Sequence record: LC739536.1
DNA: 64,000 nt
Origin: Escherichia phage phiWec187
Reading direction: 5' to 3' (one strand)
The notes under the pieces: generated by a model
What the model was told of the DNA's origin: nothing
Databases searched by the model: none
What the model saw: the letters and a program-made list of their open reading frames with translations, nothing else
Position numbers and translations under genes: made by a program
Part shown: in pieces, positions 5,464 through 10,208 of the stretch
How the letters are laid out: every line of letters begins with the position of its first letter
Position numbering within the stretch: position 1 is the first letter of the stretch

Positions 5464-6870
5464 ATGGCAACTTTTCGTGATAAGGTAGTTTCCGTAACCC
5501 TTACCTACGGTGCTACTTCAATTAGTGAAACACAGTTTGATATCCCTCTAATTCTTACAGGGCATAACGTTACTGGCAATCTTGTAGATTATTTCACTTC
5601 TTCAGACGCACTTCTGCAAGCAGGTTTTGGCACTGCCGATCCAGCTTATAAAATGGCAAAACTACTATTTGACGGTCTGTTCGCACCAGAACAAGTTATC
5701 GTCGGTAAGCGTGATGTTTCTAAAACGACTCTAACTCCAGTAGTTGAAGATAGTGCAACTTACGTTATCACTATTAAAGCAAATTCAAAAAGCAAGGACT
5801 TCAAGTTTGTTGCCGATGATACTGCAACTGCTCAAGAGATTGTTGTTGGTTTAACAGAAATGATCAACGCAGACGTAGTGTATAAAGAATTTTTCACTGT
5901 GTCAAACGATGGTAGTGTTATCACTGTAACCCCAGTTGCAGGTAAATACGCTACTATGGATAGTTCAGGATTCACAACTAACGTAGAATATGCAAATGAT
6001 ATCTTAGAAGATATTGCTAAAATTGCAGACTATGAAAACAGTTGGTTCTGGTTACTATCTGATTCTCACGCAGAACAAGATATTATCGATCTAGCAGGTT
6101 ATGTAGAAGAGCACGATAAAGTGTACTTCTTCTCTACCTCGCAACCAGGTGTTCTAACTAAAGAAGAAGATAACATTCTAGAACGCTTAGGTGATATGGG
6201 CTACAATAACACTTGTATGGCATTGTGGATGACTAACGCTGATACAGTGTTCCCAGAAGCTGCTGTAGTTGGTTCTATCTGCTCTGCAACACCAGGTACT
6301 ACTACCTTGCATGGTAAAACCCTTGTTGGTATCGAGATTGAAAAACTTGGTCAGACAGCAGAAAACTTTATCGTTCAACAGAATGGTAATATTTACCGTA
6401 AAGAACACGGTGTTCTGTTCTACCGTGATGGCTTCATGGTAAGTGGTTTCTATGTTGACTATGTGGTACACGCTCTGTGGTTCAAAGCTCGCGTAGAAGA
6501 ATCTCTGTTCGCTCTATTCAAACAGCAATCTATGCTTGGTAGTGGTGTTAGAGCAACTTCTGCTGGTCTTGCTTTGATTCGTCAGGCTGTTACTGCAAAC
6601 CCAATCCAAGTAGGTATTAACAATGGTTCTATTGCCAATGAGGTAGTAACTTCAGAGGAAACAGGACTTCTGGTAAGCCTTAAACCTACTATCTATATCC
6701 CATCTCGTGCAGATATGACTGATGCTCAAATCAATGCACGTTTGGTTGATGGTATGGTTATTGAATACGTATATGCTGGATTCTTCCACTATGTTAAAGT
6801 GCAGGTAAACGTTCTGACGAACCGCACTGCAAATAGCCAGAATTCCAATAGCTCTACTGTATCTTCATAA
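5464..6870 (+). CDS. tail sheath protein (contractile tail)
   Basis: 468 aa; position immediately upstream of tube, chaperone pair and tape measure; size typical of sheath proteins. Confidence 0.55.
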   Translation: MATFRDKVVSVTLTYGATSISETQFDIPLILTGHNVTGNLVDYFTSSDALLQAGFGTADPAYKMAKLLFDGLFAPEQVIVGKRDVSKTTLTPVVEDSATYVITIKANSKSKDFKFVADDTATAQEIVVGLTEMINADVVYKEFFTVSNDGSVITVTPVAGKYATMDSSGFTTNVEYANDILEDIAKIADYENSWFWLLSDSHAEQDIIDLAGYVEEHDKVYFFSTSQPGVLTKEEDNILERLGDMGYNNTCMALWMTNADTVFPEAAVVGSICSATPGTTTLHGKTLVGIEIEKLGQTAENFIVQQNGNIYRKEHGVLFYRDGFMVSGFYVDYVVHALWFKARVEESLFALFKQQSMLGSGVRATSAGLALIRQAVTANPIQVGINNGSIANEVVTSEETGLLVSLKPTIYIPSRADMTDAQINARLVDGMVIEYVYAGFFHYVKVQVNVLTNRTANSQNSNSSTVSS

Positions 6871-6897: not shown

Positions 6898-6928
6898 ATA
6901 TGAAAAGTAGTATAAAAGGAGATCCACT

Positions 6929-7408
6929 TTGGATAAAATGCTTACTGGCGTAATGGCCTATGATCCTTCTCAAGTAATCCTGTCTTTGGGTGGTTGGGAA
7001 CCTTGGGGTTTCGCCGCAGATACCAAAATTGTTATTAACAAAACTAACGATATCATCAACCCATATTCAGGTACTGATGGTGACGTTTCCTTGGCTCTTA
7101 GTCGTAACCGTTTAGGTACGCTAACAATGTCACTGCAACGTACTTCCCCAGCAAACGAAGTTCTTGCTGCTTATGCACAAACGATGTATTCTACTCGTCA
7201 AGTAGCATTTAGCGTATATCTAGAAGACCCTCGCGGATATTATATCAGCACAATTGGTTGGATTCAAAGCCAACCGGACGACACTATTGGTGAAACTATT
7301 CAAGAAAACCAATGGGTAATTGGTCTTAAAGATGCAAGCCTACTTCGTTCTACTGTAGGTGTTGGTGTTAACGCACTTAACTCTATTAGTGCTCTAACTA
7401 TTCAGTAA
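6929..7408 (+). CDS. tail tube protein
   Basis: 159 aa, directly downstream of sheath; followed by a terminator. Confidence 0.5.
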   Translation: MDKMLTGVMAYDPSQVILSLGGWEPWGFAADTKIVINKTNDIINPYSGTDGDVSLALSRNRLGTLTMSLQRTSPANEVLAAYAQTMYSTRQVAFSVYLEDPRGYYISTIGWIQSQPDDTIGETIQENQWVIGLKDASLLRSTVGVGVNALNSISALTIQ

Positions 7409-7411
7409 CAA

Positions 7412-7437
7412 AAAGGGCAGAAATGCCCTTTATTTTT
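7412..7437 (+). terminator. rho-independent terminator after tube gene
   Basis: stem agggca / tgccct then tatttttaaa. Confidence 0.55.
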
Positions 7438-7451
7438 AAAGAGAGGAAATA

Positions 7452-7934
7452 ATGGAACAACAAAAAGATAATACTATTGCAAAATTTGCTCGTCCAGAAG
7501 TAATGGTTGAAATTGATCTGGATGAAGGACGCAGTGTAAAATTTAGAGTTCTCAAGTGGAGTCCAACTAAAGTTTTTGAAAGGATTCCAGAACTAGGTAG
7601 TGTACTAGCTGTTCCTATGACAATGTATAATACTGCTCTTATGTCAGCAGACGAAGATCTAGAAGCTCGTATTGCTATGGCGCTGATCCAATTATTCAGT
7701 GGTCTGGAAGAAAAAAACTTAGCCGCATTCTTACGTAAAATTTTAGATGAAGTTTACACAGAAGCAGGTCACAGTGTTTCCGATAATTTTGATGAATTGT
7801 TTTTTGCTCACCCAGAATTAGTTGTTGACTTAGCTGCAAAAGTTCTTGAGGTGAACTATGCCCCTTTTTTCAAACGAGGTTTCGGAAAACTGTTGACCCA
7901 ATTTCAAGGAATAGAGACTCTAGCGAAGAGTTAA
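7452..7934 (+). CDS. tail assembly chaperone (upstream frame)
   Basis: 160 aa between tube and tape measure; contains a slippery heptamer near its 3' end. Confidence 0.5.
   Translation: MEQQKDNTIAKFARPEVMVEIDLDEGRSVKFRVLKWSPTKVFERIPELGSVLAVPMTMYNTALMSADEDLEARIAMALIQLFSGLEEKNLAAFLRKILDEVYTEAGHSVSDNFDELFFAHPELVVDLAAKVLEVNYAPFFKRGFGKLLTQFQGIETLAKS
7865..7871 (+). other. candidate programmed -1 ribosomal frameshift site T_TTT_TTC
   Basis: heptamer in X_XXY_YYZ register of the 7452 frame; the -1 frame is open from 7871 to the stop at 8209. Confidence 0.45.
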
Positions 7935-7981
7935 GTCCGGCAATTAAATCAGCAATTGAAATTGCCTCACAAACCCTTAGC

Positions 7982-8209
7982 TTGACATGGTATGAAGTAA
8001 TTCTTTGTAAGGTAATTAAGAATACCTCCGAAACCTTGTCCTCATTAGATAATTATGGTGTAGATTATCTACTTAAAATTTATGAATATTTAACATTTGA
8101 AGACTATGTACAAGATCTTCACGTTAAAGATGCGGATATTAAACGTGGTCAACAGAGAACAATAAGAGAACTGGATACGGCTATGAAAAAATTAATTCCA
8201 GATTCATAA
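7982..8209 (+). CDS. tail assembly chaperone -1 frame extension (probably expressed only as a frameshift fusion 7452..7870/7871..8209)
   Basis: frame is -1 relative to the 7452 ORF and open back to the slippery site; analogous to lambda G/GT. Confidence 0.4.
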   Translation: MTWYEVILCKVIKNTSETLSSLDNYGVDYLLKIYEYLTFEDYVQDLHVKDADIKRGQQRTIRELDTAMKKLIPDS

Positions 8210-8228
8210 GTAATACGGAGGATTACCC

Positions 8229-10208
8229 TTGTTAGAAATTAACACTTCCAAGATTAAGAATACAGTAACGTTTACTGTAGATAAAGACAGTTTAAAAAAT
8301 ACTAAAGACGCAATTAAAAACCTTAAAACTTTTACAGAATCTATTGAACCATCTTTAAATATGACTAAAATGCGTCGTCAATTTAAAAGTATGGAAGAGT
8401 ATGCTAAAAGAATAAGGCAGCAAATGTCAGGTCTTGGCGGCGGTAATCCTCCACCAATCCCACCAACCGGAGGTTCAAGCGGTGGTGGAAAAGGAGGAAG
8501 TGGTAGAGGTGGTTCTGGATCTTCTGGAGGACGTAAAACACCAGAGGAAAGAGCCGCAGAAGCCGCCGCTAAACGTGCAGCACTTGCTAATATGAAGCAA
8601 GACGATTTTAGTTTTAAAGCTATGCCTTTTACAAAAGCAGACAGCAGAATTCTAGAAAAATCTAAAAAGATTGTAGAAGAAACTGTTGAACTTTATCGTA
8701 AAGGTGTAATCACTAGCCAACAAATGAATAATACTTTGGCTAGACAGTTAGAAGAACTACGAAGATCTCATAAAGAGAAGAATGCACAACTTCTTGATGA
8801 AGAGAGAGCTAGACGCAGAATTGCCCGTCTGCAAGAAGCAGAAGATAAAAGAAGACAGCGTATCCGAGAAAGAGAAAGAAAGGATTTCGAACGTCAGCAA
8901 AGAAGAGAAAAAGAAGCAAGACAACGCGACAGACAACGTAAGCTATCTGGTGTAGGTAATGCTGCTATTGCTCTTAACCCTGCTATGTTTGGTGCTGCTC
9001 TTTTAGGTGCTGGTTTATATCAAGGTATAAGTAAAATTTCCGAAGGTATTACTGCATCGGCAGAGCGTGTTAATATGGTTAGTAGAGGTGGTCAGAACGT
9101 ACAGGTAAACCCTAACGCAATCTTAACAATGCGTACTTGGGGTGAAATGAACGGTGTAGACTCTGCTAGTATTATTAAAGCTATTGATAACCTTAAAGAC
9201 GTTCGTGAACGTTTAGGTAACACTGTACTCCACTCTGAATTTGATGAAAAATCAGGTAAATGGAAAGGTGGAGATAGTGGTATTAATGAAATCATGAACC
9301 AATTTGGTTGGACAAAAGAAGATGTTGCTAAATTCCAGAATAGACCTTTAGACTTTGTTCAAGCACTTGTTAATGAAGGTCAAAAAAGAGGAATGAACTC
9401 TGCGCAAATTGGTCGTCTGATGGAAAACCTTGGTGATGACTTAATGCACTACCAACGTATGTTTTTGGATAATGGTAAAGAGTTTATGGAAGTCCTGAGA
9501 ATGTTAAGTAATTCAGGTGCAACTCTTAACGACGAAAACATCCAAGCAGCACAAGATTTTGTTAAGCTAAGAGCACAAATTAATGCAGCAGGAGAAGGTT
9601 TTACCAATAACTTACTTGTAGGTTTTATGGATGGTTTAAAATCTGCACCAGATTTTGCAGAGAATATGAAAACTTTCCAAGAGGCTGCTCGTGGTCTTGG
9701 TGAAATGTCTGGTAGTATTGTAAGTAGCCTTGCAAAAATTGCAAAATATTTCCTTGATTTTTCAAATAAGGTTGGGCCAAAAAATAATACTAAAGAAGCT
9801 GTAAGAGATTATTATAATGGTACGCAGTATGGGTACGATGCACAGGTTGGTGGTAATCCTTGGGCTTATTGGCCTATTGGAAGAGATCAACATCTACCTG
9901 AAAATCAACCTTTAGGTAACTTTGATAGTAGTTTCTTAACTAGTGCCTTAAATCCAAGTGCTTCTAGTATTGGTTACAATAGACCTGATTTAACAGCATC
10001 TATGCTAACACCACGCCAAGGTGTTCCAGTACCGTTAAGTGTAGAGAATACAGTTGTTATCCCAGACAACGCATTCCAGATTAATGTTATTCCAGATGGT
10101 TATGGTTTTAGTAATTATCTAGATGCGACAATGAATACCAGTTTTAGTAACTTCTCACAAGGTTTAACTCTTCAGTTAAGCAGTGGACAATCTTCTACTG
10201 GTGGTTAA
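8229..10208 (+). CDS. tail tape measure protein
   Basis: 659 aa; Gly/Ser-rich linker, charged coiled-coil (RRRIARLQEAEDKRRQRIRERERK...), hydrophobic segment (AAIALNPAMFGAALLGAGLY); position after the chaperone pair. Confidence 0.7.
   Translation: MLEINTSKIKNTVTFTVDKDSLKNTKDAIKNLKTFTESIEPSLNMTKMRRQFKSMEEYAKRIRQQMSGLGGGNPPPIPPTGGSSGGGKGGSGRGGSGSSGGRKTPEERAAEAAAKRAALANMKQDDFSFKAMPFTKADSRILEKSKKIVEETVELYRKGVITSQQMNNTLARQLEELRRSHKEKNAQLLDEERARRRIARLQEAEDKRRQRIRERERKDFERQQRREKEARQRDRQRKLSGVGNAAIALNPAMFGAALLGAGLYQGISKISEGITASAERVNMVSRGGQNVQVNPNAILTMRTWGEMNGVDSASIIKAIDNLKDVRERLGNTVLHSEFDEKSGKWKGGDSGINEIMNQFGWTKEDVAKFQNRPLDFVQALVNEGQKRGMNSAQIGRLMENLGDDLMHYQRMFLDNGKEFMEVLRMLSNSGATLNDENIQAAQDFVKLRAQINAAGEGFTNNLLVGFMDGLKSAPDFAENMKTFQEAARGLGEMSGSIVSSLAKIAKYFLDFSNKVGPKNNTKEAVRDYYNGTQYGYDAQVGGNPWAYWPIGRDQHLPENQPLGNFDSSFLTSALNPSASSIGYNRPDLTASMLTPRQGVPVPLSVENTVVIPDNAFQINVIPDGYGFSNYLDATMNTSFSNFSQGLTLQLSSGQSSTGG

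Follow-up and report, generated by a model that had tools for sequence, protein, structure and literature searches.

How many forms of the tail assembly chaperone does the genome of Escherichia phage phiWec187 encode, and does the small gene annotated behind the chaperone gene exist as a gene at all? The locus lies in a 64,000-nucleotide (nt) stretch of sequence record LC739536.1 (the whole of this stretch, hereafter "the window," is numbered from its first letter), in which an open reading frame (ORF) at 7452–7934 encodes a 160-amino-acid (aa) chaperone and a second ORF begins at 7982. An earlier note on this DNA had proposed that a −1 frameshift at the heptamer T_TTT_TTC yields a long fusion chaperone besides the short form, as in the G/GT pair of phage lambda. 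Our analysis supports this proposal: ribosomes very probably undergo a programmed −1 frameshift of the G/GT type at 7865, within the tail assembly chaperone gene of this phi92-like myophage, and everything the proposal predicts at the level of sequence is found here—the chaperone family, the location between tube and tape measure genes, a −1 frame in 25/25 loci, conservation of the heptamer, and coding constraint upstream of the annotated second ORF. The features on which the argument turns, all on the + strand, are as follows.

7452..7934, +, short chaperone ORF (TAC-N, or "G"), phi92 gp132, ATG start, 160 aa; Phage_TAC_15, phrog_3840
7862..7868, +, in-register heptamer C_CCT_TTT, overlapping the next and forming with it the 10-nt slippery stretch CCCTTTTTTC
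7865..7871, +, slippery heptamer T_TTT_TTC, proposed −1 shift site (P-site UUU, A-site UUC), in register and conserved
7871..8209, +, −1-frame extension ("T" part), 112 codons plus stop, in a frame open over 7850–8209
7935..7981, +, stretch annotated as intergenic and read here as −1-frame coding, with codon periodicity and no in-frame start
7982..8209, +, gp133 ORF, TTG start, 75 aa, annotated as a separate gene; phrog_16039, unknown function

The placement of the heptamer is the first requirement, and the note had it right, as it had all coordinates and lengths. The frame of 7452–7934 reads ...AAC TAT GCC CCT TTT TTC AAA CGA... (GCC CCT TTT TTC being 7860–7871), so that position 7865 is a third codon position and TTTTTTC stands in the X_XXY_YYZ register. 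The T6 run at the heptamer extends to CCCCTTTTTT in the window, and since a slip at the overlapping C_CCT_TTT would yield the same protein, the contribution of that heptamer is inseparable by sequence. The −1 frame is closed by a TGA at 7847–7849 and then, as claimed, stays open from 7850 through the site to a TAA at 8207–8209, overlapping the gp132 ORF by 85 nt. Between 7850 and 7981 this frame holds no ATG, GTG, or TTG; the first such codon after 7850 is the TTG at 7982.

How often would such a configuration arise by chance? For the 62 putative genes called in the window, every in-register X_XXY_YYZ heptamer was listed (81 in all), and the −1 frame at these heptamers is open for a median of 5 codons, with a 95th percentile of 30. 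Only the overlapping heptamers at 7862 and 7865 exceed 60 open −1 codons, with 113 and 112, respectively, and that at 7865 is the sole in-register TTTTTTC in the 62 genes, for 8 TTTTTTC copies per strand. The combination of heptamer and long open −1 frame is thus more than chance. Two other sources of a second product were considered and rejected. The other in-register heptamer of the chaperone gene, A_AAA_AAC at 7712–7718, lies where the −1 frame is closed; it reads AAAAAAT in KP13-26 and is not kept in other relatives. A slip there would yield a truncated product only. A −2 shift on the U-run fails as the origin of a long product, because the +1 frame stops 9 codons past the site.

Conservation was assessed over 25 distinct loci, i.e., the window and 24 further genomes or contigs: five other Stephanstirmvirinae (KP13-26, phAPEC8, 05F01, KP13-16, phiWec181), ten Vequintavirinae (rV5, SalP219, Av-05, FENT2, phiTE, POP15, Mydo, pEa_SNUABM_55, Kashira, 4MG), six metagenomic contigs with chaperones 34–70% identical to the query, and the more distant Aeromonas phage 4L372D, Vibrio phage S4-7, and Rheinheimera phage Barba18A. 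Identity to the window's chaperone falls to only ~29% in the rV5 group, and by tblastn the chaperone occurs in 362 phage records. At all 25 loci the downstream ORF occupies the −1 frame and shares 85–157 nt with the 3′ end of the chaperone gene, and at 23 of them T_TTT_TTC stands in register within the overlap (Stephanstirmvirinae, Vequintavirinae, Plateaulakevirus, and the six metagenomic contigs). At the equivalent place, Barba18A carries G_GGA_AAG, the lambda heptamer (L025 1230–1236), and S4-7 carries A_AAT_TTT (L012 1203–1209). When distant homologues have different canonical slippery heptamers at one and the same position, this is a classic signature of ribosomal frameshifting.

The codons themselves point the same way. 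In a codon alignment of 23 chaperone genes, the third base is invariant in 4 of the 144 columns with at least 20 sequences, namely a single Trp codon and the three heptamer codons (7863, 7866, and 7869); outside the heptamer this leaves 1 column in 141, the Trp. The first heptamer codon varies in the residue encoded—Pro CCT at 12 loci, Cys TGT at 9, Ser AGT at 2—and always ends in T, and the two Phe codons are always TTT and then TTC across the 23 loci. On this alignment, selection at the heptamer is acting on nucleotides, beyond what the protein requires. The second heptamer, C_CCT_TTT, is found at all 12 loci with Pro in this place (six Stephanstirmvirinae including the window, and the six metagenomic contigs) and is absent from Vequintavirinae, which have ..TGT TTT TTC; sites of the latter read TGTTTTTTC, containing GTTTTT, whereas in the phi92 group C, not G, precedes the run.

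If ribosomes shift at the heptamer, the −1 frame should be coding before any start codon is reached, and this is the pattern observed. An ungapped nucleotide alignment of 7 relatives, made without protein guidance, gives differences at −1-frame codon positions 1/2/3 of 0.35/0.20/0.72 over 7935–7981, the same pattern as in the annotated gp133 ORF (0.18/0.13/0.52). Coding periodicity at 7935–7981 without a possible start implies that recoding takes place within 7850–7934, an interval in which the conserved heptamer is the only plausible site for it.

The predicted product of such a shift (TAC-NC, or "GT") has 252 aa, 140 from frame 0 (7452–7871) and 112 from frame −1, with the junction ...NYAPFF|QTRFRK... 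and a tryptic junction peptide VLEVNYAPFFQTR. Conceptual fusions from 17 loci (242–258 aa) align end to end, with an RFR(K/R) motif right after the shift, then a variable Gly/Ser/Pro-rich linker, and then a conserved helix-rich C-terminal domain that starts before the annotated starts (...LSPAIKSAIEIASQTLS|LTWYEV... in the window); the conserved motif SPAIKSAIEIASQTLS likewise lies 5′ of TTG 7982. The gp133 ORF at 7982–8209 would then, with the same high confidence as the frameshift of which it forms part, be the C-terminal part of the fusion and not a separate gene.

That the shared N-terminal part is a tail assembly chaperone is well supported by its family membership. By standard decoding, 7452–7934 gives the 160-aa protein from an ATG preceded by a Shine–Dalgarno sequence of −7.5 kcal/mol, and this protein, gp132, matches Pfam PF21822 Phage_TAC_15 with 80.8 bits (gathering cut-off 22; E 1.6e-22; residues 29–144 on profile positions 3–123 of 127) and phrog_3840 "tail assembly chaperone" with E 4.4e-54. 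RefSeq phi92 also labels gp132 "tail assembly chaperone," leaving gp133 unnamed. A database search with the 252-aa fusion, word-indexed and not recovering short T parts, returned no single-ORF fused homologue: its 45 homologues are all of 151–175 aa, correspond to the N-terminal part only, and in 45/45 cases carry PF21822. As none of the 45 is a single-ORF long form, the two-frame layout is the rule. A sequence search of the PDB with the fusion gave nothing relevant (best match E 0.17).

The surroundings are those expected of a tail chaperone locus. Over 6900–8300 the window is 99.8–99.9% identical to Escherichia phage phi92 and other Justusliebigvirus genomes (Stephanstirmvirinae), i.e., its phage is a phi92-like myophage, and the genes run in the order sheath, tube (6929–7408), chaperone pair (7452–8209), and tape measure (8229–10208).

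5464..6870, +, tail sheath gene, phi92 gp130; phrog_205 (E 3e-104), Pfam DUF3383; sheath in PMC13450770
6929..7408, +, tail tube gene, phi92 gp131; phrog_280, Pfam PF11681; tube in PMC13450770
7412..7431, +, terminator-like hairpin between tube and chaperone genes, with a T-run to 7437; AAAGGGCAgaaaTGCCCTTT, then ATTTTT
8229..10208, +, tape measure gene, phi92 gp134; phrog_16051 "tail length tape measure protein," 1321.6 bits, E reported as 0

The RefSeq label of gp131 is "virion structural protein," i.e., the tube. The tape measure gp134, whose TTG start has a GGAGG Shine–Dalgarno sequence 7 nt 5′ of it, is the presumed client of the chaperone. In the 2026 cryo-EM study of the phi92 virion, the sheath gp130, tube gp131, and tape measure gp134 were built (PMC13450770); gp132 and gp133 are not among the virion components, and neither the chaperone nor a frameshift is mentioned there (PMC13450770). 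Absence of gp132 and gp133 from the virion structure lends support to one trait of the G/GT type, that the products stay outside the virion. The hairpin at 7412–7431, which matches in position a terminator annotated in the phAPEC8 record, could cut transcription of the chaperone and tape measure genes relative to sheath and tube by attenuation.

Several peculiarities of the records were seen along the way. RefSeq phi92 places a "hypothetical tRNA" within the sheath coding sequence (CDS), at about 6415–6507 of the window (L001 1016–1108); ARAGORN found no tRNA in 6200–6700, and on this negative the feature is probably spurious. In Barba18A, an opposite-strand HNH endonuclease gene follows the chaperone pair where the tape measure gene would be expected. 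Several entries titled "Campylobacter phage" (MG0656xx), with Campylobacter jejuni given as host, share 99.9% identity with phi92-like phages of E. coli, and further members of the MG0656xx series correspond to rV5 and phAPEC8, with 100% or 75% protein identity; the hosts stated for these entries look doubtful.

How would the two products arise and act? Most ribosomes would translate 7452–7934 and release the 160-aa gp132. In a minority, with tRNA-Phe on UUU in the P site and on UUC in the A site (7866–7871), both tRNAs would slip by −1 to pair with UUU UUU, and CAA (7871–7873) would be decoded next; these ribosomes would read on to 8209 and make the 252-aa fusion, whose N-terminal 140 residues are chaperone and whose C-terminal 112 residues contain all of the annotated "gp133." Such a step suits the E. 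coli ribosome, on which A_AA.G is the only tetramer to shift more readily than U_UU.C (PMC4066793). UUY codons are very prone to slippage there, heptamers made up entirely of pyrimidines are preferred, and cognate re-pairing in the A site is possible with the best motifs (PMC4066793). T_TTT_TTC satisfies all of these preferences. The model for lambda has the N-terminal part on the tape measure and the extension bringing in tube protein, with both leaving the finished tail (PMC5009743). By analogy, the shared N-terminal part of the phi92-like proteins would coat the tape measure gp134 and the extension would recruit the tube protein gp131, leading to tube polymerisation around the tape measure; neither chaperone form would stay in the virion, and their ratio would be set by the shift efficiency. 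We infer that the shift is ribosomal and of low efficiency (a few per cent), that GAGGTGA (below) stimulates it, and that the binding partners are those named; the signal, its register, the open frame, the nucleotide selection on the heptamer, and −1-frame translation upstream of any start are what the sequence comparison itself shows.

A candidate stimulator lies upstream of the heptamer.

7848..7854, +, Shine–Dalgarno-like GAGGTGA, candidate 5′ stimulator, 10 nt 5′ of the heptamer

All 7 nt of GAGGTGA are complementary to the 16S rRNA 3′ end, the duplex energy (−9.9 kcal/mol) is in the top 0.7% of the gene's 9-mers, and the element is made of minority codons (GAG, 23% of Glu; GTG, 13% of Val). 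Across 22 loci, its equivalent is strong in 13 and moderate in 5, and GAGGTGA is likely a 5′ stimulator of the kind present in dnaX. Downstream, the near-invariant GGTTTCG (7878–7884 in the window, 6–9 nt 3′ of the heptamer, and offset by 3 nt between the two subfamilies) was considered as a stimulator and set aside, because dual coding explains it better (G-F in frame 0, R-F-R in frame −1), though it may also serve as a spacer or stimulator sequence.

Several observations weigh against the frameshift or its proposed stimulation. The Shine–Dalgarno-like element is absent from 4 of the 22 loci (phiTE, POP15, Mydo, and KP13-16), and it follows in part from the conserved peptide L-E-V. The downstream RNA structure suggested in the earlier note was sought by folding, RNAalifold, and Rfam and did not appear: neither of the two regions folded, 7872–7951 and 7840–7990, is stable (minimum free energy z-scores of 0.19, for 7872–7951 vs shuffled sequences, and 0.42); RNAalifold consensus structures for 6 Stephanstirmvirinae and 10 Vequintavirinae reach only about −0.6 and −2.2 kcal/mol and lack compensatory pairs; and an Rfam scan of 7300–8400 (E <= 1) gave nothing above threshold, the sub-threshold matches to SraG, CRISPR-DR35, and STnc400 being chance ones. 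No conserved hairpin or pseudoknot was found 5–9 nt 3′ of the heptamer, where sites of the IS3, IS911, and dnaX type have one. Furthermore, the phi92 and rV5 papers searched do not mention a frameshift, the literature searched holds neither a junction peptide nor a reporter measurement for the phi92 phage group, a single-sequence AlphaFold2 model of the fusion is too poor for use (mean pLDDT 43), and a T6 run might, in principle, equally allow slippage during transcription. The missing 3′ stimulator is compatible with a low-efficiency site of G/GT type. Tentatively, the shift may be tuned by the 5′ Shine–Dalgarno-like element alone, without a 3′ RNA structure, on a 10-nt double slippery stretch, C_CCT_TTT_TTC, that offers two consecutive chances to slip, with the lineages that lack the element (phiTE, POP15, Mydo, KP13-16) making a different short:long ratio; we put this forward as a conjecture that could well prove wrong.

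Could the downstream frame be translated without any shift? The locus may be taken as two independent genes, gp132 of 160 aa and gp133 of 75 aa from TTG 7982, with heptamer and overlap incidental. This is how phi92 and most of its relatives are annotated, phrog_16039 is a family of 72-aa proteins matching 7982–8209, and the TTG start is present. However, that TTG has no Shine–Dalgarno sequence (0 kcal/mol, where 9/9 neighbouring genes have −5.5 to −10.5), and 7935–7981 is under −1-frame coding constraint without containing a start codon. Annotated downstream starts are scattered among relatives, giving ORFs of 132 to 369 nt or none at all in some records, and the position of the first in-frame start codon is not conserved; protein conservation across subfamilies, on the contrary, begins well upstream of the annotated starts. 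Two independent genes would also leave the third-position invariance of the three heptamer codons (23 loci) unexplained, and we consider them very unlikely indeed. The upstream constraint could be accommodated by a free "T" protein of ~113 aa, initiated internally via GAGGTGA at a non-canonical codon near the T-run. Here the strong Shine–Dalgarno-like element 10 nt upstream would find a use, and rV5 gp050 (L007 1251–1619) is indeed annotated from a CTG immediately next to the T-run, with a 109-nt overlap with gp051; this amounts to annotating the whole −1 frame without calling a frameshift, and the rV5 paper does not mention one. In Erwinia phage pEa_SNUABM_55, moreover, GGA TGT makes a −1-frame ATG just before the T-run (L014 1257–1259), ~12 nt after GGAG; this is the only locus at which internal initiation of a free T is conceivable. 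CTG is a very weak start codon in E. coli, however, and the −1 codons of the window over 7850–7873 are GGT GAA CTA TGC CCC TTT TTT CAA, none a known start, as is likewise the case in all relatives with Pro at the preceding codon. With no −1-frame start codon before 7982, a translation start close to the T-run is ruled out for the window; a free T would explain neither the in-register heptamer nor its replacement by other slippery heptamers, and overall this origin is extremely unlikely.

The same fusion could also be made without a ribosomal shift, if RNA polymerase stutters on the T6 and inserts an extra U into a fraction of the mRNAs. The site is a homopolymer, extended in the window as described above, the comparative evidence shows recoding while being silent on its level, and the search for a 3′ RNA element that would stimulate a ribosomal shift gave nothing. 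Six T are nonetheless short for efficient slippage by bacterial RNA polymerase, for which the known cases have runs of about 9. The C after the run is invariant in 23 loci, though a T here would leave the Phe unchanged and make the run longer; an invariant C fits the ribosomal preference of U_UU.C over U_UU.U (PMC4066793), not a preference for longer runs. The replacements G_GGA_AAG and A_AAT_TTT, non-homopolymeric, are classic ribosomal shift sites and poor templates for slippage, and a Shine–Dalgarno-like element at dnaX-like spacing is sensible only for a ribosomal mechanism. We therefore regard polymerase slippage as very unlikely and retain the programmed ribosomal frameshift as the explanation of the locus.

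The frameshift proposed here shares its layout with well-known systems and differs from each. The lambda G/GT pair is reportedly produced by such a frameshift, reportedly conserved in the tail chaperones of long-tailed phages and extending to P2 E/E+E′ and the Mu-type chaperones. Lambda gpG/gpGT and the present locus have in common two overlapping ORFs between the major tail or tube gene and the tape measure gene (PMC5009743), a downstream ORF in the −1 frame without a start of its own, and a short chaperone and fusion (predicted products here) outside the virion, with no need of a strong RNA stimulator. They differ in the heptamer (T_TTT_TTC here, G_GGA_AAG in lambda), in the chaperone family (Phage_TAC_15 here, with no detectable sequence similarity to gpG), and in the contractile tail and the Shine–Dalgarno-like element 10 nt upstream; the lambda short:long ratio is ~30:1, and the two forms here are predicted from sequence. 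With the P2/Mu type, the locus shares a myovirus tail, the order sheath–tube–chaperone pair–tape measure, and a −1 shift, in a 145–150 kb virulent lineage without detected sequence homology to them. The P2 shift site is also a T-run, T_TTT_TTG; the heptamer here instead ends in C, which allows re-pairing of the cognate tRNA-Phe. Frameshift efficiency in P2 is 2–3 fold above that of lambda (PMC5009743).

The nearest precedent is a December 2025 prediction of a −1 frameshift at an invariant GTTTTT of the chaperone locus in Vandenendeviridae (Pakpunavirus Adele) and Andersonviridae (PMC12846349). The genomes screened there for the frameshift were 159 of Vandenendeviridae and 231 of Andersonviridae and none of the phi92 or rV5 groups, and the study names Stephanstirmvirinae and Vequintavirinae as relatives (PMC12846349). 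Common to those families and the loci here are a poly-T at the TAC-N 3′ end, an uninterrupted −1 frame in all genomes, and a downstream ORF routinely mis-annotated as a hypothetical protein; the register, the third-position invariance, the replacement heptamers, and the Shine–Dalgarno-like element are reported here only. Outside phages, an internal Shine–Dalgarno-like sequence ~10 nt 5′ of the heptamer is shared with E. coli dnaX, which reportedly combines A_AAA_AAG, such a stimulator 10 nt upstream, and a 3′ hairpin. In dnaX, the 3′ stem-loop is strong, the efficiency ~50%, and the product truncated, whereas the product here would be extended and no 3′ structure was found. Frameshifting is also not the only way to obtain two forms: a passage in PMC10885494, citing Vladimirov, Gautam and Davidson 2022, has some T4-like phages encoding short and long chaperones as separate genes, without a frameshift. 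Those phages, too, are large virulent myoviruses in need of both forms; in the present family, by contrast, no single-ORF long form occurs among the 45 homologues and the frameshift layout is universal.

The frameshift here is an unannotated case of a well-known phage signal, not a new mechanism. None of the 24 GenBank/RefSeq records inspected (phi92, phAPEC8, rV5, PVP-SE1-like, phiTE, and other related groups) annotates a frameshift or a joined CDS; they show instead a spurious "hypothetical protein" with scattered starts, or a gap of ~290 nt, and no report of a chaperone frameshift in phi92-like or rV5-like phages was found in publications or database records. The inspected phages include ones considered for therapy, and the correction to annotation probably applies to hundreds of genomes.

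For the biology of the group, these results extend the December 2025 prediction (PMC12846349) to two further subfamilies and suggest that the poly-T shift site was inherited across a whole supergroup of large virulent myophages. Studies of phi92 tail assembly are provided with the predicted sequence of a long chaperone and with a specific junction peptide. If tuning by the Shine–Dalgarno-like element alone were to prove true, the family would constitute a natural series for how the G:GT ratio is set and how far tail assembly tolerates its change.

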